Shown: positions 8,011-20,010 of the stretch, piece by piece
How positions within the stretch are numbered: position 1 is the stretch's first letter
Layout: every line of letters begins with the position of its first letter
Assembly (NCBI GenBank): GCA_964632315.1
Contig: CAZWEM010000052.1
Coordinates: forward strand, 1-31,086
DNA from: an uncultured archaeon
Lineage (GTDB): Archaea > Asgardarchaeota > Lokiarchaeia > Sigyniarchaeales > SOKP01
DNA length: 31,086 bases
Direction of reading: 5' to 3'
Program-made: the position numbers and the translations under genes
Notes under the pieces: generated by a model
The model's database searches: none
The model's input: only the letters and a program-made list of their open reading frames with translations
What the model was told of the DNA's origin: nothing

Positions 8011-9615
8011 TTATTGACTATTTTCCTCTAATTCTAGTCGCTCTTCTATTTTTTTAATGGCATTAGAAGCGTAAATCCTTACTACTCTATGGAAATCATT
8101 TACTCTGGTCATTAGTGCATTTAAAGCTTTATCATCACCGAACCTTTCTAGTATCTTGATCGTACTAATCTTAACCTTATAATCCTCTTCATCATTATTC
8201 TTAAGGAAATCGATTAGTCTCGCGTAATCTTTATTTAGTGAACGCCAAAATTCGTTCTCTGTATCTTTTAACTTATACCAATTTTTTTGAAAGATATTAT
8301 AGATTGCATCCGCAGCTACTTTTTTGATCAACCAGTATGTTTGTTCATCATTCAAAACGGAAATTAATTCATTCAAGGAACTCGTTAGCCCTATTTTACC
8401 TAAGGCTATAATAACATTTTTTTTCACATCTAAATTTCTATCATCCATTACTCTAACTAATGGAGCAGCGAATTCTTTATTACCAATTTCGCCCAATATG
8501 AAAGCAACGCTTTCTTTTATTGTTTCATTATCACCATTGAGATAATCCAATAAATAGGCATAAGACTCAACTTCAGAATTCAGATATATATTTTTTATAG
8601 CATCAATGACTTGAAATTTCATATCAATATCAGTGTATTCGAAGCTTATGTCTTCAATGTTTAAAATGCTTAACAATTCCGGAACTGCACTGATATCTCC
8701 AATTTCTCCTAATGCTTCAATAGATGCCCGCGTGACCTCATTATACATGTTATCTAAATTATCGATTAATGAATCAACAGCGTCGCGAATCTTTAATTTC
8801 CCAGTAATGATAATAGCATTTTTTTTCAATATGAAATCGTCAGTTAGTAATAACTTGATGAGATCATCTTTAATATGATCCGAAATAAGAGATAAAGTAG
8901 CAACAATTGAATTCATTAAAGCTTTATCCTCTTCCCTTAACACTCGAGAGATTTCATTTAAGACAGTATTCCTATTTTTTACTAAATCTGAAAGGATTTC
9001 AGGATATCTTGTTTTAATATAGCCAATATCATCAAGATCCATGTTGATACTTGAAATTTCGTATCCCATCAGTTTGATGATCTCAGATTTATGCTTATTT
9101 GAAAGATTATTGTCTTTTAAAGCAGATACCAATGATTGAATTAAGTATGCCGGTTCGATGTCCAATAATTTGTTCTTTACAAAATTTTTTATACTATTAA
9201 AAACTGAGTCCAGGTATTGAATATATAATTTTATCTCTTCCTTTTCGAATCTAATTTTCCCTATAGATTTTAATGCTGCAATGTAAATATCAGGATCATT
9301 AAACTCTTGATTGAGAATCCATCGTAATGGCTTTAATCCCTTTTCTAATCTCAATCTACCAAGAGCTTTTGCGGCTTCACATTTGATTTTTACACCCTCT
9401 TCAGATATCAACACATTTTCTATAGTATCGAAACAATCTTTACCTAAAGAAGATTCCTCTTTACACATTACTCCTAAATATCTTATGGCTCCAATTCGCT
9501 TATTATTGTTTTTAGTGGCGTCGATAATTTCAGTAAGCATCCTAATTGAATTATTTAACCCTAATTGTTGTCTTTTAGCGTAGACATCATCTGGTTCGAG
9601 TTTAGGATCAATCAT
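8011..9615 (-). CDS. HEAT-repeat (PBS lyase-like) alpha-solenoid protein
   Basis: Repeated units such as KCEAAKALGRL, TRASIEALGEIGD, KESVAFILGEIGN, KKNVIIALGKIG, VRIYASNAIKKI. Confidence 0.88.
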   Translation of the reverse strand: MIDPKLEPDDVYAKRQQLGLNNSIRMLTEIIDATKNNNKRIGAIRYLGVMCKEESSLGKDCFDTIENVLISEEGVKIKCEAAKALGRLRLEKGLKPLRWILNQEFNDPDIYIAALKSIGKIRFEKEEIKLYIQYLDSVFNSIKNFVKNKLLDIEPAYLIQSLVSALKDNNLSNKHKSEIIKLMGYEISSINMDLDDIGYIKTRYPEILSDLVKNRNTVLNEISRVLREEDKALMNSIVATLSLISDHIKDDLIKLLLTDDFILKKNAIIITGKLKIRDAVDSLIDNLDNMYNEVTRASIEALGEIGDISAVPELLSILNIEDISFEYTDIDMKFQVIDAIKNIYLNSEVESYAYLLDYLNGDNETIKESVAFILGEIGNKEFAAPLVRVMDDRNLDVKKNVIIALGKIGLTSSLNELISVLNDEQTYWLIKKVAADAIYNIFQKNWYKLKDTENEFWRSLNKDYARLIDFLKNNDEEDYKVKISTIKILERFGDDKALNALMTRVNDFHRVVRIYASNAIKKIEERLELEENSQ

Positions 9616-9920
9616 ATTTATAGCGGATTCTTTTTCAATTATTTATCCAATAGATTTTGAGATTATAAAAATATTTTCAATTTGAATCTTTAATTGACAT
9701 TTTGCTATTTTTTGGCACTTCGAGAAATTATATAATAAATCAAATTTTATTTAAGAACCCCATAATTTTTAACTCTTTTGCTATTATTTTCAATCAAGGT
9801 ACCTAATCTTTTTAATGAAACATAATAAAAATGACAATTCAGATAATAAAATTGTCGGTTATTGCTCATACCGGCTAATACAATAAATCTATAAATATAA
9901 ATATCATAGAAGTTAAATTA

Positions 9921-9935
9921 AAAATATTATAAATA
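9921..9935 (+). promoter_or_regulatory. Candidate archaeal TATA box (A-rich BRE + TTATAAATA) for the hdrA cluster
   Basis: AAAATATTATAAATA lies ~30 nt upstream of the leader hairpin. The region is very AT-rich and another TATA-like run occurs near 9890-9904. Confidence 0.3.
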
Positions 9936-9965
9936 AATGTAAATTAAGAGATTAAGTAACTAAAA

Positions 9966-10029
9966 GTATCGGATTTATAGAATCTTGATGAATAAATTTA
10001 GTGTTATTACAAGAATTATAGATCCGTAC
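9966..10029 (+). promoter_or_regulatory. Long stem-loop in the hdrA 5' leader
   Basis: CGGATTTATA (9970-9979) pairs with TATAGATCCG (10017-10026), with one G-U pair. TCTTG (9983-9987) pairs with CAAGA (10010-10014), and AATAA (9991-9995) with TTATT (10004-10008). Closed by GTA/TAC. Confidence 0.5.
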
Positions 10030-10045
10030 AAAATTGTAGTAACTT

Positions 10046-10052
10046 GAGGTGA
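10046..10052 (+). promoter_or_regulatory. Shine-Dalgarno-like GAGGTGA upstream of hdrA
   Basis: Matches the archaeal anti-SD complement and ends 13 nt before ATG 10066. Confidence 0.55.
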
Positions 10053-10065
10053 GTGTGAAAAAAGA

Positions 10066-12009
10066 ATGGAAAATACCCAAAAGCATCGGATTGGATACTA
10101 TGCATGTCAGTGAGGTATAAACATACGGAGTAAAGTTGATTGCAATAAACTAGTAGAATTCGCAAAGCAATTTGATGATGTAGTCGTAGCCAAGACTCAT
10201 TCGTTCTTATGTACGGAAAGCGGTCAAAATGAAATCATGAAAGACATTGAGGAACAGAAACTGGATCGCATTATAGCTTCTGCTTGAACCCCTCGGACTC
10301 ATGAACCAGTATATCGTGGATCAATAGCAAAAACTAGTTTAAGTCCCTATTATTTTCAAATGGTCAACGTACGCGAACATTGTAGTTGGTGTACGGAAAA
10401 AAACGAAGAGGCACTTGAAAAAGCTAAGATTCTTGTAAAAGGAGGGCTTGAACGAGTAAGACGACTGGAAGTTGTGCCTGTTAAAACTGTACCCGTTGAA
10501 AAGGCAACTCTGGTTATTGGAGGCGGTATCGCTGGGATGAATGCTGCTCTAGATTTAGCAAACCAAGGTATAAAGGTATACCTTGTAGAGCAAAAATCAA
10601 CCATAGGAGGTCGAATGGCTCAATTAGATCGCACATTCCCAACGGACGACTGTTCTATTTGAATATGCGGGCCTAAGATGTTGGAGGTTAACCGTCATGA
10701 GAACATATCGATTTTGAGTTATAGTGATGTGAAAAGCGTGGAAGGATATGTTGGAAATTATGAAGTAACGGTTGAAAAAAGACCGAGATTCATCGATCCA
10801 GAAAAGTGCAACGGATGTGGTGCTTGCTCTGAGGTTTGTCCAACTTACACGACGAATTTCTTTGATGAATTTTTAGGAGCACGAAAGACTATAGATATTT
10901 CATTTGGTCAAGCAGTTCCGTTTCTTTACGATATACATCGTGAAACGTGTGTTGAATGTTTTAATTGCGTGGAAGCTTGCGAGCTCAATGCCATTGATTT
11001 TAGTCAAATCCCTGAAGAAGTTAAATTCAAGGTCGGTACAATAATTATTGCGACAGGTTGGGATATCTATGAACCCTTTGGCGAGTATGGATACGGAGAA
11101 ATCGAAAATGTGATAACACAAGCTCAATTGGAACGGATGCTAGCACCTAATGGTCCTTTAGGAGGGCATGTTCGAAGGATTTCGGATGAGAAGAAGCCAA
11201 AAGAAATTGTTTTCATACAATGTGTAGGAAGCCGGCAGACTGATAGGACTTATTGTTCGGGAGTATGCTGTATGTTAGCGCTCAAGAACGGAAAGTTGCT
11301 CAAAGAAGAATTTCCTGACGCAAATATTACGATCTGTTATATTGATATTCGAACGAACGAGAAAGGCTTTGAAGAGTATTATCAACGAGCTAAGGATTCC
11401 GACATTCGAATGATTCGCGGAAAAGTAGGTGAACTCTCTGAAGATCCTGAAACTAAAAATGTAAAAATTCGCGTTTATTCATCATTAACTGATGAAATAA
11501 TCAAGATTGATGCCGATTTAGTAGTTCTCTCCACGGCAGCCTTACCTTCAAAAGGAACTCGTGATATCGCAAAGATACTCAATTTAGACATTGATATGAA
11601 CGGTTTCTTGACTGAAAGTCACTTTGGACTTATGCCACAAGAAACGAAAGCGAAGGGAATCTTTATAGCGGGATTTGCACAGGGTCCTAAGGATATTGCA
11701 TATTCTGTTTCACAAGCGAGAGCAGCTGCAAGTAAGGTGGCTGAGCTAACATCTGCAGGAGAAATCGATTTAGAATTAATCGTTGCAGAAGTGGACAAGG
11801 CCTTTTGCATATCTTGTAGGCGTTGTGAGAAGGAATGCCCAAAGGGAGCAATCAGAATCGTTGAATCAGAGGGAGCTGTTGTAGATGAAATAAATTGCGA
11901 CGGGTGCGGAATTTGTGCTACTTGTTGCCCAACGAAAGCAATTGACATTCGCTATTATAGAGACGATCAAATTATGGCAGAAATTGATGGAATTTTAGAA
12001 GGAGGTTAA
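10066..12009 (+). CDS. hdrA: Heterodisulfide reductase subunit A, selenoprotein with three Sec (U16, U74, U199), 647 aa
   Basis: Single frame from ATG 10066 to TAA 12007-12009, interrupted only by TGA at 10111 (RIGYYACQUGINI), 10285 (IASAUTPRTHE) and 10660 (TFPTDDCSIUICGPKM). Each TGA aligns with a Cys in the paralog at 16460 (CHCGINI, VASCTPRTHE, TFPTNDCSLCILAPKM). FAD motif GGGIAG, ferredoxin insert, CVGSR..YCSGVCC and C-terminal 2x[4Fe-4S] are all intact. Merges track ORFs 10360..10662 and 10678..12009. Confidence 0.93.
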
Positions 12010-12014
12010 ACGAA

Positions 12015-12464
12015 ATGGAGCATGAATACAAGATTATAATGTTTGCATGTTTGAAATGAGGTTATGGAGCCGCCGATTTAGCTGGTGTTTCTCGAATGAA
12101 ATATACGCCCTCAGTAAAGATTATTAAGGTAAGATGTACCGGGATGGTGGATGTAAAGTATATTCTTCATTCCATTAAACAAGGAGCAGACGGCGTTATG
12201 ATCGTGGGATGAAGACCAGATGAATGCCAGTTTAAAGTTGGGAACTTCACAGCCCAGAAACATGTAGATCTCGCCAACCACATTTTAGAACGTAGAGGTT
12301 TTGGAAATCAGAGAGTCAATATGTACTGGTGTAGTAGTGCTGAATCTGAAAAATTAGTTAAAAGTGTAGAAGACGCATTTGAAAAAATCCAACGTTTAGG
12401 TCCTAATCCGATAAGTATACCGGGTTTAGAAACATCGAAAGAAGAAGTATCAACCACCCCATAG
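12015..12464 (+). CDS. mvhD: MvhD/VhuD [2Fe-2S] subunit, selenoprotein with two Sec (U15, U66), 149 aa
   Basis: Missed by the ORF track. MEHEYKIIMFACLKUGYGAADLAGVSRMKY...VRCTGMVD...GADGVMIVGURPDECQF...RLGPNP...STTP*. TGA at 12057 and 12210 align with Cys in the paralog at 19567 (CCNWCSYAGADLAG; SGCHIGDC). SD GGAGGT at 12001-12006; ends in TAG. Confidence 0.93.
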
Positions 12465-12521
12465 AATGACTCCTGTAAAAAAATTGTAGTTACAGGATGA
12501 CGATCCTTGCAAGGATGGGGT
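12456..12521 (+). promoter_or_regulatory. Eukaryote-like SECIS element in the 3' UTR of hdrA-mvhD
   Basis: Helix I: ACCCCAT (12456-12462) with ATGGGGT (12515-12521). Core: ATGAC (12466-12470) opposite TGAC (12498-12501), giving tandem G.A/A.G pairs. Helix II: perfect TCCTGTAA (12471-12478) with TTACAGGA (12490-12497). Apical loop: AAAAATTGTAG. Confidence 0.88.
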
Positions 12522-12544
12522 TTTGTATTGTTATTGTTTGTATT
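12521..12544 (+). terminator. U-rich tract after the SECIS, candidate archaeal terminator
   Basis: TTTTGTATTGTTATTGTTTGTATT directly follows SECIS helix I. Confidence 0.35.
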
Positions 12545-12581
12545 AAAAAAATGTATTTGAAAAAAAATGAATTGAAGCTCT

Positions 12582-14087
12582 ATGGTCTCAATAGAAAAAA
12601 ATATTTTTGGAAATGTATCAATCAAGAATTTAATGGATGCAACCTACGAAGCATCCACTAATTTTCAAATTCGCGCCTTCTTTGAGGCAAAAGATGAGAT
12701 ATTAAAAGCCGGTAAATATTCTGAAAAAGAATTTTATGAAATTTTAGATGCGATGATTGATGCCGAGACAAGAAGGAAAATAATCTTTGAAAACCTTCGG
12801 GGAAAAGAACCGCTATTTTTATCTGAAATCGCGAATGAAATCACCATTTTTACTCCACAAGAAGTAATACGTGATGTGATCTACCTGAAAGCTCAGGGTT
12901 ATATGGAAGAACTCATTGAAGTTAAAACAAAAATGGTCACGAAAAAGATAAAAGGAGAAGAAAAGCAGGTTGAGGTCAAAGAATACTTTTACCGTTATCA
13001 AGCGAAGGAGCTAGCAAAAGATTTCATGGAAGAATATTTTAAGCCCGTTTCAGTGGTATTTGATAGTGGTGTTTGTTGCCATTGCGGGTGGTGTCATGCT
13101 ATTTGTCCAGTCAACGCGATTAACGTTGATGCTGATAATCTTAAAATTGATGATGAAGTTTGTATGAAGTGCGGATTGTGTTTTACAGTATGCCCTCGTT
13201 CTTTTTCTATTGATCAAGCTAATGCTGCGATAAACCAATTCAATAAAGAATTAAATTGGTCTGATAAGATTGGAGCATATGTAAACGCATATTCGGCAAG
13301 TACTAAAAATGAAGATATAATTAAGGTTCGACAAGATGGAGGAATTATCACGTCGATCGCGGAATACATGCTAAAAGAGAAATTAGTGGATGCCGTTATT
13401 GCGGTACAACATTCAAAAGATTTATGGAAACCAGAACCCGTTATTATTGAAAACGTGAAGAACTTATATAAAACTGCTGGAACTAAGTATGCAAATGCCC
13501 CCACATTAAAGATCATAGAAGAAGCTAAAAAATTTGAGAAGATTGCTGTCGTGGGGGTTCCATGCATGATGAAGGCTTTAGCAAAAGGAACATTATATCC
13601 CAGTGGATTACCTTTTTTCAAAAATATTAAATATAGATTAGGACTGTTCTGCATGGAATCATTTCCTTATGATGGCATCATACAACTTGCAAAAGAACAA
13701 TTTGATAAGGATATTAATGATTTAACTAAAATGAATATTGGTGGCGGAAAATTCATTATTAGATTAAAATCAGGAGAACAATTAGATGTGCCGCTAAAAG
13801 AAGTCCAAAAATATGCCCGTGGGAATTGCCACTACTGTGAAGATCTGACTTCAGATTACGCAGATATTTCTGTAGGTTCAATTGGATCTCAAGATGGATG
13901 GTCTTCGGTTATAACTCGTACACTTGAAACAGAAAAAATCTTCCAAGATATGATAAAAAAGGGGTATATTGAATCCAAGGACCTTAAAGAGGTAAAACCG
14001 GGATTTTCTTTAGTGGAACGAATTGGAGGTTCAAAAAGATCAAAATGTACTGATCCTTATGAAAAGGTAAAATCTTCTAAAGAGTAG
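12582..14087 (+). CDS. FrhB-family F420-binding subunit with ~155-aa N-terminal helical/winged-helix-like extension and 2x[4Fe-4S] domain
   Basis: CCHCGWCHAICP, CMKCGLCFTVCPR, QDGGIIT, AGTKY, VGVPC, GLFCMESF, CHYCEDLTSDYADISVGSIGS..GWSSVITRT. Confidence 0.9.
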   Translation: MVSIEKNIFGNVSIKNLMDATYEASTNFQIRAFFEAKDEILKAGKYSEKEFYEILDAMIDAETRRKIIFENLRGKEPLFLSEIANEITIFTPQEVIRDVIYLKAQGYMEELIEVKTKMVTKKIKGEEKQVEVKEYFYRYQAKELAKDFMEEYFKPVSVVFDSGVCCHCGWCHAICPVNAINVDADNLKIDDEVCMKCGLCFTVCPRSFSIDQANAAINQFNKELNWSDKIGAYVNAYSASTKNEDIIKVRQDGGIITSIAEYMLKEKLVDAVIAVQHSKDLWKPEPVIIENVKNLYKTAGTKYANAPTLKIIEEAKKFEKIAVVGVPCMMKALAKGTLYPSGLPFFKNIKYRLGLFCMESFPYDGIIQLAKEQFDKDINDLTKMNIGGGKFIIRLKSGEQLDVPLKEVQKYARGNCHYCEDLTSDYADISVGSIGSQDGWSSVITRTLETEKIFQDMIKKGYIESKDLKEVKPGFSLVERIGGSKRSKCTDPYEKVKSSKE

Positions 14088-15213: not shown

Positions 15214-16460
15214 TGAGAATTACTGAAGCAGAAAAAGATTCTAGTTTAAACCAGGTTAAAAAGGAAGATGAAGCTTCCAGTATCTCTTTAAGATCATTAT
15301 TAAGTAAATGTTATCAATGTGCAAGATGTTCAGGGGTGTGTCAACTGTCTAAGGTTCAAAAGTTCACCCCCAGCCGTATTATTCAGAAAATATTGGAAGG
15401 ATTTGAAGATCAAGTTCTCCAATCAGGAGTGTTGTGGGATTGCTTAATGTGCAATAGTTGTCTTCAAAATTGTCCAGAAGACATAAACTTTGCTGATATT
15501 GTTAGGATAGCCCGTAGAAAAATGATAAATGAATATAATTTCGATGCGGATAATTATACTGCACATAAAGGCATCTACCTTTCAATTTCTGAACTCATGA
15601 GCAGACCAAATATAGAACCTAAAAGAAATTTGGATTGGATTCCAAAGAGTTGTAAAATTGCAGAAAAGGGAGAAGTGTTATACCATGTGGGATGTCTTCC
15701 ATATTTCAAGTTTGAATTTGATGAACTTGATCCCATTGCAATTAGTACCGTGAAACTCTTAAGTAAGACTGAGAAAAATCCAATCGTAATTCTTGAAAAT
15801 GAGTATTGCTGTGGTCACGATTTATATTGGGGACATGGAAATATGAAAGCGTTTTTATCGTTAGCAGAAAAGAATATTAACAATTTTGAGAAAGCTGGAA
15901 TAAAAAAAATCATCACCACGTGTTCTGAGGGATATCGCACGTTTAAAATTGATTATCCCAAATATTTTGAAGGATTTAATGATAAATTTGAAGTTAAGCA
16001 CATTATCGAATATGTGTACGAAAAATGGAAAGAAGGGATCATTGAATTTGATTCAACAAAAGCATATAAAGAAGGAACTACATTTTCTTTTCATGATCCA
16101 TGTCGTATGAGCAGATTTCTCCCAAAAGACAATAAAATCATGGACCAAGTTAGGGAAATATTTTCTCATCTAAAAAAAGTGGGAGTAAGTTTCAATGAAA
16201 TGCCCCATCACAAAGAAAACTCCTTATGTTGTGGAATTGGAAGCTGGATGGGATGCAATGAGCGATCAAAAGCTTTAAGATATAAGAGGTTGCTCGAAGC
16301 AAAAGAATCAGGAGATTTGATGATCACGAGTTGTCCCAAATGCATCATGCATTTTCAATGTTTACAAAAAGATTATGAGGATATTTCTGAAGTGTCTATA
16401 TTGGATTTCACGGAATTCATTCTTAACTTTATTAAATTTAAGAGCGTGAGGGATAAATAA
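15213..16460 (+). CDS. HdrD-like Fe-S oxidoreductase (HdrC-type 2x[4Fe-4S] plus two CCG domains)
   Basis: CYQCARCSGVC, CLMCNSCLQNCP, HVGC, YCCG, TTCSEG, FHDPC, LCCG, TSCPKC. ATG 15213 overlaps the upstream TGA. Confidence 0.87.
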   Translation: MRITEAEKDSSLNQVKKEDEASSISLRSLLSKCYQCARCSGVCQLSKVQKFTPSRIIQKILEGFEDQVLQSGVLWDCLMCNSCLQNCPEDINFADIVRIARRKMINEYNFDADNYTAHKGIYLSISELMSRPNIEPKRNLDWIPKSCKIAEKGEVLYHVGCLPYFKFEFDELDPIAISTVKLLSKTEKNPIVILENEYCCGHDLYWGHGNMKAFLSLAEKNINNFEKAGIKKIITTCSEGYRTFKIDYPKYFEGFNDKFEVKHIIEYVYEKWKEGIIEFDSTKAYKEGTTFSFHDPCRMSRFLPKDNKIMDQVREIFSHLKKVGVSFNEMPHHKENSLCCGIGSWMGCNERSKALRYKRLLEAKESGDLMITSCPKCIMHFQCLQKDYEDISEVSILDFTEFILNFIKFKSVRDK

Positions 16461-19400
16461 TGAATGGTTCTGTCTTGGTTATTGGTGGTGGGATAGCAGG
16501 TATACAAACATCATTAGATTTAACTGAATTAGGATTTAAGGTATACCTCGTGGAAAAAACGCCTTCCATAGGCGGTAGAATGGCACAACTGGATAAAACA
16601 TTTCCCACCAACGATTGTTCTTTATGTATACTTGCCCCGAAGATGGTTGAGGTTTTTAGAAATCCAAACATCGAATTACTTACATATTGTGAAGTTAAAA
16701 AATTGGAAGGAAAAGCTGGAGATTTCAAAGTTACTATCCTTAAAAAACCTCGATATATTGATGAGACAAAATGTAAGGGATGTGGTGACTGTGCTTCAAA
16801 ATGCCCCAAGATTGAGGTTCCTAATCTATTTGATATGAACTTAGGAAAAAGAAAGTCTGTTTATATTCCTTTCCCTCAAGCAGTCCCCCCAATCTACTTA
16901 ATAGACCCGGAAATCTGCTTGAAATTAACGAAAGGTGTATGTGGGGTATGCAGTAAGGTTTGTAAAGCAGAAGCTATTGACTATGAACAACAACCAAAAG
17001 ATATCGAATTAAATGTTGGTGCTGTGGTGGTAGCAACAGGATTTGACATGTATGCTGAAGAATTATCTACTCGGTGGGGCTATCGTTTTCAGAATGTTGT
17101 AAATGCATTAGAATATGAGCGAATTCTATGTGCTTCCGGACCATTTGGAGGACACGTCCTAAGACCAAGTGATCATAAAGAGCCTGAGAAGATTGCGTTT
17201 ATTCAGTGTGCTGGGTCAAGAGACCTCCACGAAGGAGTTCCCTATTGTTCAAGTGTGTGTTGCATGTATACAGCGAAAGAATCTATCATTACATCTGAAC
17301 ATTCTGAAAATACTCAATGTTTTGTTTTCCGTCATGATATCCGAGCCTACGGTAAAAATTTTTATGAATTTACCCAGAGAGCCCAAGATGAATATAGTGT
17401 CACCTACATTCAGACAAAAATTAGCACCATCGAAGAGGATCCCGAATCAAATGATCTTATCATCCATTATGAGGATCTACGAAATGGTGGATTTAACGAT
17501 TTTAAAGCTAATTTGGTTGTATTAGCGACTCCACTTGTTCCCTCCAAGGGAACGAAAGATTTAAGTAAAATTCTCAATATTGATCTGGACAGATATGATT
17601 TTTTCAAGGAAAAATCTTATTTTGCTAAGTCAGAGTCATCAAAAGAAGGAGTTTTCTTATGTGGATTTTGTCAAGGACCGATGGACATTCCTGAAACTGT
17701 AGCTGATGCGAGTGGTGTTGCAGCTAAAGTTGCTTCATTATTGAATACTGAAAAGTATACTGAAATTAAAGAAAAAGAGATTAAAGTTCCAGAGAAAATA
17801 GTGTCAAGCAGTGATGATCCAAGAATTGGGGTTTTAGTGTGTCATTGTGGTATAAATATTGGTAAATATGTTGATGTACCAGGGGTAGTAGATTACATTA
17901 AAACTCTTCCCGGTGTTGAACACTGCGAATCAAATCTTTATTCTTGCTCTAGCGATTCTCAAGAGAGAATCAAAGAGGTAATCCAAGAAAAAAACTTAAA
18001 TCGATTTATCGTAGCATCCTGTACTCCAAGAACCCATGAAGCCCTATTTCAAGAAACATGTGTAGAAGCGGGATTGAATAAGTATTTGTTCGAGATGGTA
18101 AACATAAGGGATCAATGCTCTTGGGTTCACATGACAGAAAATGAAGCTGCTACAGATAAAGCAAAGGATCTCATACGGATGGCAGTTGCTAAAGTCAAAT
18201 TAATCAAGCCTCAAAAAGAAGAGACATTAAAGGTCATTCAGAGTGCATTTGTAATAGGAGCTGGTGTTTCTGGTATGACAGCTTCCTTAAATCTTGCAGA
18301 TCAAAATTTTAAAGTGTACCTTATTGAAAAAGAGGACAAATTAGGTGGAAATCTTAATAATTTGAACATCCTTTATCCTATTGAAGAAAAAGCTTCAAAT
18401 TATCTTGAAGAAATTACTAATAAAGTAAAGAATCATAAGAATATTGAGATATATCTTGAGAGTTCAATTGAGAACATTAAGGGATATATCGGGAATTATG
18501 AGATAAATATTAAAGATTCAAGTAATAAAAAGAAAGAATTTAAAGTAGGCACCATCATTGTGGCGACAGGAGCTCAAGAATTAAAGCCAGATAATCTTTT
18601 TCAATATGATAAAAAAAATAAGAATGTCATTACACAATTAGAATTAGAAGAACGGTTAAAAAGAAAGGATTCGAGCTGGCTTGATGGAATAAAACGAATA
18701 ACTACGATTTTATGTGTAAATGCGCGTCAGAAGGAAGGTATCACTTACTGTTCAAATGTGTGTTGCGGAGTATCAATAAAAAATATTGGTATCTTAAAAG
18801 AATTAAAGCCAGATCTAGAAATTTTGGTATTATACCGAGATTTGCAAATGGCGAAAAAAGAATTTGAGGATTACTATCGTCAAAGGAGGAAAGATGCAAT
18901 ATTCTTAAGGTATAGCCTTGATAAAATCCCCGAAATTACCAAGATTTCAAAAGGAAAAGAACCAGAAAAGTACAATATTAATATTTTTGATACTAATTTA
19001 CAAGAAGAAATCAATTTCGAAAGTGACCTCATCATCCTTTCAACTCCAATGATACCTGCGGATAACCTTGATGGATTAGCAAAGATGCTAAAAGTTCCAT
19101 TAGATCGAACTGGTTTCTTCCTTGAGGCCCACGTGAAATTGAGACCCCTTGATTTTGCCACGGATGGCATATTTTTGGCTGGATGTGCCCAATGGCCAAA
19201 AAACATACAAGATTCTATTTCTCAAGCGACAGGTGCCGCTGGAAGAGCAAGCCGATTTCTAAGTGCAGGAGAGATAAAAACCTCCGGACTTGTTGCTGAA
19301 GTCTCATCCGAAAAATGCATTGGTTGTGGTCGTTGTGAGGAAGTATGCCCCTATAATGCGATTGAATTAATTGACACAATTAAGGAATATGAGGATGTGA

Positions 19401-19570
19401 AGATAACATTAAAGAAGTCTTACATAAATTCCGCACTTTGCAAAGGTTGTGGAACGTGTGCCGCCACTTGTCCCGTCAATGCTATTTCTGTGAAACATTA
19501 TGACTTTAATCAAATCAATGCGATGATTGATTCTTATTTACTCGATAAAACTTGTGTTGAAGGTGAATGA
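16460..19570 (+). CDS. hdrA: Large (1036 aa) Cys-type HdrA-family protein with two FAD modules
   Basis: Starts at FAD motif GGGIAG, then TFPTNDCSLC, ferredoxin insert and YCSSVCC. Internal RIGVLVCHCG...ASCTPRTHE...RDQCSW domain, second GAGVSG module with YCSNVCC, and C-terminal 2x[4Fe-4S]. Confidence 0.92.
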   Translation: MNGSVLVIGGGIAGIQTSLDLTELGFKVYLVEKTPSIGGRMAQLDKTFPTNDCSLCILAPKMVEVFRNPNIELLTYCEVKKLEGKAGDFKVTILKKPRYIDETKCKGCGDCASKCPKIEVPNLFDMNLGKRKSVYIPFPQAVPPIYLIDPEICLKLTKGVCGVCSKVCKAEAIDYEQQPKDIELNVGAVVVATGFDMYAEELSTRWGYRFQNVVNALEYERILCASGPFGGHVLRPSDHKEPEKIAFIQCAGSRDLHEGVPYCSSVCCMYTAKESIITSEHSENTQCFVFRHDIRAYGKNFYEFTQRAQDEYSVTYIQTKISTIEEDPESNDLIIHYEDLRNGGFNDFKANLVVLATPLVPSKGTKDLSKILNIDLDRYDFFKEKSYFAKSESSKEGVFLCGFCQGPMDIPETVADASGVAAKVASLLNTEKYTEIKEKEIKVPEKIVSSSDDPRIGVLVCHCGINIGKYVDVPGVVDYIKTLPGVEHCESNLYSCSSDSQERIKEVIQEKNLNRFIVASCTPRTHEALFQETCVEAGLNKYLFEMVNIRDQCSWVHMTENEAATDKAKDLIRMAVAKVKLIKPQKEETLKVIQSAFVIGAGVSGMTASLNLADQNFKVYLIEKEDKLGGNLNNLNILYPIEEKASNYLEEITNKVKNHKNIEIYLESSIENIKGYIGNYEINIKDSSNKKKEFKVGTIIVATGAQELKPDNLFQYDKKNKNVITQLELEERLKRKDSSWLDGIKRITTILCVNARQKEGITYCSNVCCGVSIKNIGILKELKPDLEILVLYRDLQMAKKEFEDYYRQRRKDAIFLRYSLDKIPEITKISKGKEPEKYNINIFDTNLQEEINFESDLIILSTPMIPADNLDGLAKMLKVPLDRTGFFLEAHVKLRPLDFATDGIFLAGCAQWPKNIQDSISQATGAAGRASRFLSAGEIKTSGLVAEVSSEKCIGCGRCEEVCPYNAIELIDTIKEYEDVKITLKKSYINSALCKGCGTCAATCPVNAISVKHYDFNQINAMIDSYLLDKTCVEGE

Positions 19571-20010
19571 ATGTGTCTAAAACTAAAGGTAAAACTACTG
19601 TAAAAAAGTTCGAACCAAACATCTTGGTATTCTGCTGTAATTGGTGCAGTTATGCAGGAGCCGATTTAGCAGGAGTGTCTCGGTTTCAGTATCCTCCAAA
19701 TATAAGAATTATAAGAGTAATGTGTTCTGGACGAGTGGATCCAGCATTCGTTTTAAAAGCATTGAAAGATGGAGCCGATGGTGTATTAATAAGCGGTTGT
19801 CATATTGGGGATTGCCATTATATATCTGGAAATGAATATACTAAAGAGCGATTCGAACGACTGCATAAAATAATTATCAAACAACTTGGGATAGATCAAA
19901 AAAGAGTTCGGTTAGAATGGGTGAGTGCTTCTGAAGGTAAACGTTTTGCTGAAGTGATTACAGAATTTACCAATCAGATTAAAGAATTAGGGCCTCTCAA
20001 TTATGAATAG
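19567..20010 (+). CDS. mvhD: MvhD/FlpD [2Fe-2S] subunit, Cys type
   Basis: FCCNWCSYAGADLAG, RVMCSGRVD, GADGVLISGCHIGDCHY, WVSASEG. ATGA overlap with hdrA. Confidence 0.95.
   Translation: MNVSKTKGKTTVKKFEPNILVFCCNWCSYAGADLAGVSRFQYPPNIRIIRVMCSGRVDPAFVLKALKDGADGVLISGCHIGDCHYISGNEYTKERFERLHKIIIKQLGIDQKRVRLEWVSASEGKRFAEVITEFTNQIKELGPLNYE

Follow-up and report, generated by a model that had tools for sequence, protein, structure and literature searches.

A putative bicistronic hdrA-mvhD selenoprotein unit of a Sigyniarchaeales archaeon with a single eukaryote-like SECIS element that probably serves five UGA codons

INTRODUCTION

In Lokiarchaeota, hdrA and vhuD genes were described as pairs that share one downstream selenocysteine insertion sequence (SECIS), the lokiSECIS, for as many as six UGAs over ~2 kb (Mariotti et al. 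2016, PMC4989117). Huang et al. 2024 (PMC11227280) reached the same conclusion and extended it to Asgard archaea. The lokiSECIS defined in the 2016 study comprises an AUGA, a stem of 9 bp, a loop of 11 nt with A's at its start and (A)G at its end, and then a GA. The same authors considered the use of one SECIS for both genes as specific to Lokiarchaeota, had already noted that a UGA stop codon may overlap the AUGA and did not find a homologue of SBP2 in Loki. Here we analyse a hdrA-mvhD (vhuD) pair and the SECIS element behind it, located on a stretch of 31,086 nt of an uncultured archaeon (Asgardarchaeota, Lokiarchaeia, Sigyniarchaeales, SOKP01; assembly GCA_964632315.1, contig CAZWEM010000052.1, positions 1 to 31,086 of the forward strand). 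This whole stretch is called the window below.

A sequence-only reading of the window had proposed that one eukaryote-type SECIS recodes five UGAs across the boundary between the two cistrons. Both the arrangement and this reading are already known for this gene pair and this lineage, and the proposal is the conclusion of the very paper it cites. Since the arrangement was published in 2016 and again in 2024, the locus adds little as a discovery. We therefore present it as a further copy of a described system, together with a refined view of the SECIS itself.

RESULTS

Five in-frame UGA codons in the hdrA-mvhD pair

The coordinates of the pair and of its SECIS are collected in Table 1. When TGA is read through, both frames are otherwise clean, with no frameshift and no further stop. 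The sequence-only reading had given three in-frame TGAs for hdrA and two for mvhD, at positions that are Cys in paralogues of the window, with frames ending in TAA and TAG and separated by 5 nt. This description matched base for base: all five TGA coordinates were recovered, as were the Cys residues of the paralogues. It had further stated that standard gene callers fragment hdrA and miss mvhD, and this is what translation table 11 gives: open reading frames (ORFs) 10360-10662 and 10678-12009 only (100 and 443 aa) in the hdrA region, and 12096-12212 and 12321-12464 only (38 and 47 aa) in that of mvhD.

Table 1. Features of the hdrA-mvhD unit and of its SECIS, in window coordinates
Feature	Position	Strand	Description
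hdrA	10066..12009	+	647 aa; HdrA-family flavo-iron-sulfur protein; stop TAA 12007-12009; 3 Sec codons
hdrA TGA codon 16 (Sec16)	10111..10113	+	motif C-Q-U-G-I-N-I; Cys in methanogen HdrA
hdrA TGA codon 74 (Sec74)	10285..10287	+	motif A-S-A-U-T-P-R-T-H-E; Cys in methanogen HdrA
hdrA TGA codon 199 (Sec199)	10660..10662	+	motif D-D-C-S-I-U-I-C; canonical HdrA Sec position
mvhD/vhuD	12015..12464	+	149 aa; F420-non-reducing hydrogenase iron-sulfur subunit D family; stop TAG 12462-12464
mvhD TGA codon 15 (U15)	12057..12059	+	read-through translation
mvhD TGA codon 66 (U66)	12210..12212	+	read-through translation
hdrA-mvhD spacer	12010..12014	+	5 nt
Shine-Dalgarno GGAGGT for mvhD	12001..12006	+	within last hdrA codons; seen in sequence
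Shine-Dalgarno-like GAGGTG, hdrA leader	10046..10051	+	14 nt ahead of ATG; overlaps in-frame TGA 10045-10047
lokiSECIS core	12466..12500	+	only exact pattern match in window
AUGA	12466..12469	+	directly 5' of main stem; begins one base past mvhD stop
helix II	12470-12478 with 12490-12498	+	9 positions: 8 Watson-Crick pairs and C.U at base
apical loop AAAAAUUGUAG	12479..12489	+	11 nt, AAAAA...AG
GA	12499..12500	+	directly 3' of main stem
helix I 5' strand ACCCC	12456..12460	+	last mvhD codons; pairs with 12517-12521 in minimum-free-energy fold
helix I 3' strand GGGGU	12517..12521	+	minimum-free-energy fold, covariation
second hairpin AUCCU-UGCA-AGGAU	12503..12516	+	GA strand, separates helix II from helix I; folds

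HdrA contains the Pfam domains Fer4, FAD and pyridine-nucleotide oxidoreductase, has HdrA2 and HdrA as top NCBIfam matches and aligns over its full length with the structures 9sfi_A (1.8e-203) and 5odc_A (3.7e-198) of the Protein Data Bank (PDB). MvhD matches Pfam FlpD (PF02662, 2.7e-43) and, as its top NCBIfam match, VhuD; the nearest solved structures belong to methanogen Hdr-Mvh/Vhu complexes (E 6e-37). The 9sfi sequences carry an X, a non-standard residue, at exactly three places, the known Sec sites of methanogens, and these correspond to U199 of HdrA and U15 and U66 of MvhD: the X of the motif DDCAMXILAPKM in 9sfi_A aligns with the former, the two X of 9sfi_K with the latter. HdrA U16 and U74 align with Cys in methanogen structures. 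The paralogues of the window, a fused double HdrA (16460-19570) and a MvhD (19567-20010), have Cys at all five positions. In the family alignment, which had been suggested as a check of the sequence-only reading, every one of the five TGAs falls on a Cys/Sec column. HdrA has the domain plan of the selenoprotein family with a selenocysteine (Sec) near residue 200 (DDC..U), and MvhD has a FlpD/MvhD domain whose two Sec, separated by ~50 residues, occupy the positions known from methanogen VhuD. We also observed that the NCBIfam HdrA2 model (777 positions) is covered by HdrA over 1-642 and by MvhD over 647-774; as the model spans HdrA and then MvhD, the pair is equivalent to a fused HdrA2-type protein split in two.

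The position of the mvhD Shine-Dalgarno sequence suggests translational coupling from hdrA to mvhD, and synonymous variation is lowered over hdrA codons 635-646 and the mvhD start (35 orthologues). The TGA at 10045 was considered as a fourth Sec codon and rejected: it overlaps the Shine-Dalgarno-like sequence of the leader, is not conserved as TGA, and homologues start at the Met at 10066. In its column, a U is found in just 16 of 41 alignment rows. The leader motif G[AG]GGTG is kept in 35/35 same-genus orthologues, but not the T on which the TGA depends.

The UGA codons are conserved in Promethearchaeota

The relatives used for comparison are metagenome-assembled genomes (MAGs) labelled Promethearchaeota or Promethearchaeia, i.e. 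Lokiarchaeia-type Asgard archaea. In a set of 77 aligned HdrA loci from named Promethearchaeota MAGs, the TGA of residue 16 is kept in 76/76 and those of residues 74 and 199 in 77/77 each, with frames otherwise open. The same TGAs in 77 orthologous and otherwise open loci are not due to chance. A mvhD with two TGAs is present in 35 same-genus genomes, the two codons being kept in 40/40 and 40/41 orthologues, so that the conservation in relatives that the first interpretation of the window had called for is found in both genes. Some variation was seen at other HdrA positions: residue 49 (10210-10212), a Cys codon TGT here, is TGA in 50/77 orthologues and is thus Sec/Cys polymorphic, and rare extra Sec occur at residues 301 and 614 (two orthologues each).

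Among 75 complete loci, hdrA ends in TAA (63) or TAG (12) and never in TGA. In orthologous loci, hdrA and mvhD are spaced by -23 to +22 nt, most often by 5 nt. Of 35 orthologues (L053-L086), 25 use the UGA within the AUGA of the SECIS as the stop codon of mvhD, and an in-frame TAA lies three codons further on, inside helix II. The frame in the window is offset by 1 nt, which is why its mvhD stops at a TAG that precedes the AUGA by one base.

A single lokiSECIS core follows mvhD

The pattern ATGA-N9-AAAAA-N5-G-N9-GA has one zero-mismatch match in the 31-kb window, at 12466-12500 and 2353 nt from the first UGA. The sole AUGA/GA SECIS had been placed after mvhD, ~2.35 kb from the first UGA, and the search thus returned the same element. 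Its AUGA/GA placement, its 9-position stem, its 11-nt loop with an A-run at the start and a G at the end and its position only after VhuD are those of the lokiSECIS.

An equivalent element is found at the same place in 35/35 same-genus orthologues. Across all 34 aligned orthologues, the ATGA does not vary, the other side of the stem has either GA or AA, and the loop AAA (positions 3-5) and final G are invariant as well. The 35 same-genus elements were used to build a covariance model, R1, which scores 79.6 bits (E 1e-22) at 12450-12530 in the window. Eighty loci from named MAGs were then scanned with R1. At E <= 1e-4, there is one sense-strand match per locus, just past mvhD, in 75/75 loci with sufficient downstream DNA; the five loci without a match are cut by contig ends. 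For the 75 distinct sequences so obtained, the share of paired cells is 89%, and compensatory changes are seen at 17 of 19 pairs, helix II alone contributing 8 of its 9 pairs. None of 500 shuffles reached any of the observed measures, and sliding the partner strand by 1-3 columns left 41-59% pairing.

Rfam searches (gathering threshold and E<=10) gave no SECIS family in the unit, only weak matches to CRISPR-DR, sR15 and miRNA families at chance level, and Rfam appears to be without an Asgard or archaeal SECIS model. The sR15 match (C/D-box small RNA) lies at 12205-12260, over the second UGA of mvhD (23.6 bits for a threshold of 40, E 0.23), and is probably due to chance. Behind the SECIS, a T-rich tract (12521-12544) may play a role in termination. 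We also noticed that the hdrA 5' leader (10030-10039) and the apical loop of the SECIS (12480-12489) have the 10-mer AAAATTGTAG in common. The leader motif AAAATTGTAR is kept in orthologues, but the identity between leader and loop is peculiar to this window and may be chance.

The SECIS is a three-way junction

Beyond the published core, the SECIS is a larger, covariation-supported three-way junction composed of a closing helix (helix I), the SECIS hairpin and a second hairpin. Among the 75 sequences, all six modelled pairs of helix I show compensatory changes, despite the coding nature of its 5' strand. The second hairpin is present in orthologues and 3 of its 4 modelled pairs covary. Constrained minimum-free-energy folding yields the three-way junction in 28/34 orthologues, compared to 14% when the 3' flank is shuffled. 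The pairing obtained for helix I, 78-85%, is an underestimate, as the model alignment opens no gaps for the variable linker after the second hairpin. When helix I was sought as the longest complementary run, 5.7 bp were obtained versus 5.1 bp in cross-paired controls, with no separation; both strands are of low complexity, which makes this test uninformative, and helix I was therefore assessed by constrained folding and covariance-model alignment.

On visual inspection, other SECIS elements of the genome follow this plan too, at VhuU-like, Prx-like, other mvhD and small candidate genes; it was seen behind every inspected selenoprotein gene of this genome, beyond hdrA-mvhD. The main texts of Mariotti et al. 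2016 and Huang et al. 2024 do not mention a three-way junction, and a full-text literature search on SECIS, 'three-way junction' and Asgard returned nothing relevant.

The genome carries a Sec pathway and further SECIS elements

Window genes 14098, 16460 and 22948(-) terminate in TGA, and the remaining odd TGAs in long frames of the window sit at gene ends or before gene starts. Since neighbouring genes end in TGA, the genetic code is unchanged and UGA is a normal stop.

The source assembly comprises 4.45 Mb in 119 contigs, with an estimated completeness of 99.5% and an estimated contamination of 8.6%. A tRNA-Sec with anticodon tca (61.3 bits, above cut-off) directly adjoins a SepSecS gene (372.6 bits), and two SelD genes, also above cut-off, contain one in-frame TGA each. 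SepSecS, tRNA-Sec and a gene for an EFSec-like GTPase are clustered within ~5 kb (C35:1160-6640). The archaeal/eukaryotic Sec pathway is represented by tRNA-Sec, SepSecS and Sec-containing SelD, with candidate genes for a PSTK-like kinase and an EFSec-like GTPase. The sequence-only reading had made its proposal dependent on such machinery. It is present for tRNA-Sec, SepSecS and SelD, with tRNA-Sec and SelD scoring above cut-offs; PSTK and EFSec are the best family matches of their genes and score below the curated cut-offs (see Discussion).

R1 matches were also found behind other in-frame-TGA ORFs of the genome, among them other mvhD genes, one VhuU-like gene and a small selenoprotein candidate. 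The element is thus tied to selenoprotein genes generally and not to the 3' end of this operon alone. Three more Sec-type mvhD genes bear a SECIS, at C9:43179(-), C2:29693(-) and C2:100073-100152(-); upstream of the first two lies a Sec-containing hdrA that ends in TAA. Four further elements, at C14:57685(-), C3:40565(-), C8:107403(-) and C33:41356(+), follow ORFs of no obvious selenoprotein family, which are candidate new selenoproteins. Features among these four ORFs include a tandem UU (..HADUUADNM..), a 62-aa membrane protein with GGGGUGC and the motif SESULL.

Search for a second signal serving hdrA

A separate SECIS inside hdrA or mvhD had been named as an observation that would speak against the sharing of one element. 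Neither the covariance-model scan nor the synonymous-site profile gave any. In the unfiltered R1 scan of 9400-12800, the next best match scores just 11.5 bits (E 0.07), compared to 79.6 bits for the SECIS after mvhD. It corresponds to a hairpin in the hdrA leader (9966-10029; -18.6 kcal/mol, z -4.1). This hairpin was rejected as a required SECIS, since L053, the nearest orthologue, does not have it (z -0.5) and it is not conserved. Other orthologues have differently placed inverted repeats upstream, with no shared AUGA/GA or GAA/A motif. In many of them, an inverted repeat TTTCGACA-N13-15-TGTCGGAAA is found further upstream and may be a regulator-binding site.

The synonymous-site profile of 35 orthologues shows no dip within either gene body; it falls only over hdrA codons 1-14 and where the end of hdrA meets the start of mvhD, a junction that contains the mvhD ribosome-binding site. 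A relaxed SECIS pattern at 11410-11444 within hdrA was also rejected, since it corresponds to the codons of a conserved peptide, MIRGKVGE[FI][ST]EDPE. It recurs in place in 11/34 same-genus orthologues, but 3 to 9 of its 9 positions pair without a compensatory pattern, the structure collapses when the peptide varies, and the loop is without an A-run and a terminal G. Scanning for the Methanococcus-type GAA_A SECIS gave 110 matches versus 59 in shuffles; they are dispersed and counted repeatedly, and their positions are not conserved. The exception is a mini-structure of 6+3 bp that covers the Shine-Dalgarno sequence of mvhD.

DISCUSSION

A probable shared SECIS for five UGA codons

We read the locus as a bicistronic selenoprotein unit with three plus two Sec codons, all five of which would be served by one 3' eukaryote-like SECIS, and we give this reading a probability of about 0.8. 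It is supported by all the computational checks that were run. Among them, the Sec machinery, the conservation of the TGAs, the single covarying SECIS and the UAA/UAG ends of hdrA agree with what had been proposed for the window, one eukaryote-type SECIS acting on five UGAs across a cistron boundary.

In this model, hdrA and mvhD would be carried by one polycistronic mRNA, as suggested by the 5-nt gap, by the mvhD Shine-Dalgarno sequence inside hdrA and by the lack of room for a terminator or a promoter. The single 3' element, with its kink-turn-type AUGA/GA core, would recruit the machinery delivering Sec-tRNA to ribosomes at each of the five UGAs, reaching as far as 2.35 kb upstream and past the hdrA stop. 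Ending hdrA in UAA would keep its stop from being recoded, while the mvhD stop would be too near the element for recoding. Two observations fit these rules. The lack of a UGA stop in hdrA in 75/75 loci agrees with recoding of every UGA located upstream of the element, and the use of the UGA of the AUGA as mvhD stop in 25/35 orthologues is compatible with a minimal distance. Both points, the avoidance of a UGA stop in hdrA and the minimal distance for the mvhD stop, were made by Mariotti et al. 2016.

Several observations weigh against a shared element. Among archaea, Sec insertion has been experimentally shown only in methanogens (PMC9622424). With transcription coupled to translation, UGA16 would be reached by the first ribosome long before the SECIS, 2.35 kb further on, exists; with a SECIS transcribed so late, the mechanism would need uncoupling or would tolerate early termination. 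Two members of the Sec pathway were assigned below curated cut-offs, with models built on other lineages: the PSTK-like gene has selen_PSTK as its top NCBIfam match with 158 bits (cut-off 290.5), and the EFSec-like GTPase selB with 237 bits (cut-off 242). Finally, synonymous variation over hdrA codons 1-14 (10066-10110), just before the first UGA, drops to 0.35 for a mean of 0.72. This dip seems stronger than initiation constraints alone would produce and could hide a 5' signal.

Such a signal would be the basis for an alternative in which hdrA has a signal of its own, either hidden in the hdrA or mvhD coding sequence or formed by the leader hairpin, and the 3' SECIS serves mvhD alone; a possible model is the 5'-located SECIS of Methanocaldococcus fdhA. 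The unusual stability of the leader hairpin, its rank as second-best, although very weak, R1 match, the strongly lowered synonymous variation over codons 1-14 and the SECIS-like pattern within hdrA are all in line with it. We nevertheless hold it to be unlikely: the hairpin is missing in L053 and the repeats of other orthologues differ and share no SECIS motif, the pattern at 11410 is a by-product of the conserved peptide (MIRGKVGE..EDPE) with an unfit loop, the GAA_A matches are scattered and unconserved in position save the tiny one over the mvhD Shine-Dalgarno sequence, and the synonymous-site profile is undipped inside the gene bodies. A different view would dispense with the SECIS altogether, the UGAs being read by near-cognate Cys or Trp tRNAs or by context read-through, or would make the element a structure for mRNA stability or termination only. 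The element does stand where a 3'-end structure would be, with the T-rich tract next to it, and the role of lokiSECIS in Sec insertion is a predicted one. Against this, the genome has the Sec machinery, and the element combines a eukaryotic SECIS core with an A-rich loop and recurs behind in-frame-TGA ORFs of known selenoprotein families and candidates. Moreover, Sec positions equal those of proven methanogen selenoproteins, and the avoidance of a UGA stop in hdrA (75/75) is sensible only if a UGA upstream of the element is recoded. We consider this second view highly improbable.

Pseudogenes, assembly errors or a changed code with UGA as sense might be invoked as well, given that standard gene calling yields fragments only and that the assembly, in 119 contigs, has an estimated contamination of 8.6%. 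This is hardly credible when the five TGAs stand at the same codons in dozens of independent assemblies with frames otherwise intact, are confined to Cys-aligned columns and have neighbouring genes that stop at TGA; it is already refuted, as far as sequence can show. We retain the shared 3' SECIS as the best reading of the pair.

What remains of value at this locus is the refined SECIS architecture and its use as an experimental template. It is a clean and conserved example of the most extreme SECIS action known, on 5-6 UGAs, in two cistrons and over >2 kb, in the lineage of archaea that is closest to eukaryotes, and is thus well suited for testing eukaryote-like SECIS elements of Asgard archaea. 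There is also a practical side: since hdrA is broken up and mvhD is lost under table 11, electron-bifurcating complexes of Asgard archaea are misrepresented in metabolic reconstructions. The three-way-junction refinement could matter for SECIS search tools and for the hunt for an archaeal SECIS-binding factor.

Comparison with known systems

In the k-junction described by Lilley's group (PMC10573300), the strand of a kink turn that carries no bulge has an additional helix. The secondary-structure topology of the SECIS after mvhD fits that of k-junctions (Wang et al. 2014, PMC4005666; PMC10573300), and its three helices covary; the likeness is one of secondary structure alone. The loop that separates helix I from the AUGA is longer than the 3-nt bulge of a k-turn. 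We tentatively suggest, as a possibility more doubtful than probable, that the functional Asgard SECIS is a k-junction-like three-way junction of which the closing helix and the second hairpin (often CC..GCRA..GG) are integral parts, perhaps bound by a protein of the L7Ae family or another one, and that this would enable recoding of many UGAs over >2 kb and across cistrons.

Compared to eukaryotic type I SECIS elements, such as that of SelP with its multiple UGAs, the element is similarly placed in the 3' untranslated region and would similarly act at a distance on several UGAs. It shares with them the quartet of non-Watson-Crick AUGA/GA pairs at the bottom of helix II, the unpaired A's of the loop and a lower helix I. 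It differs in its shorter helix II, in a helix I broken by the extra hairpin of the GA strand and in its presumed action across a stop codon on a polycistronic mRNA; Rfam SECIS models do not match it. With VhuD and HdrA of Methanococcales and Methanopyrus, the pair has in common the protein families, the hdrA-vhuD synteny and the positions of U199 and both VhuD sites, which are X in 9sfi. Their SECIS with a GAA_A bulge and a GC-rich stem was not found here, and their HdrA has one Sec versus three.

The closest relatives are the HdrA-VhuD pairs of Lokiarchaeota. As in these, hdrA is followed by vhuD/mvhD on the same strand after a very short spacer, HdrA contains multiple Sec, including the canonical site near residue 200, and VhuD contains two. 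A single lokiSECIS is present after the second gene only, and hdrA ends in UAA/UAG. Nothing essential sets the locus apart from them: it is the copy of another genome, with 3+2 Sec and a Cys at residue 49.

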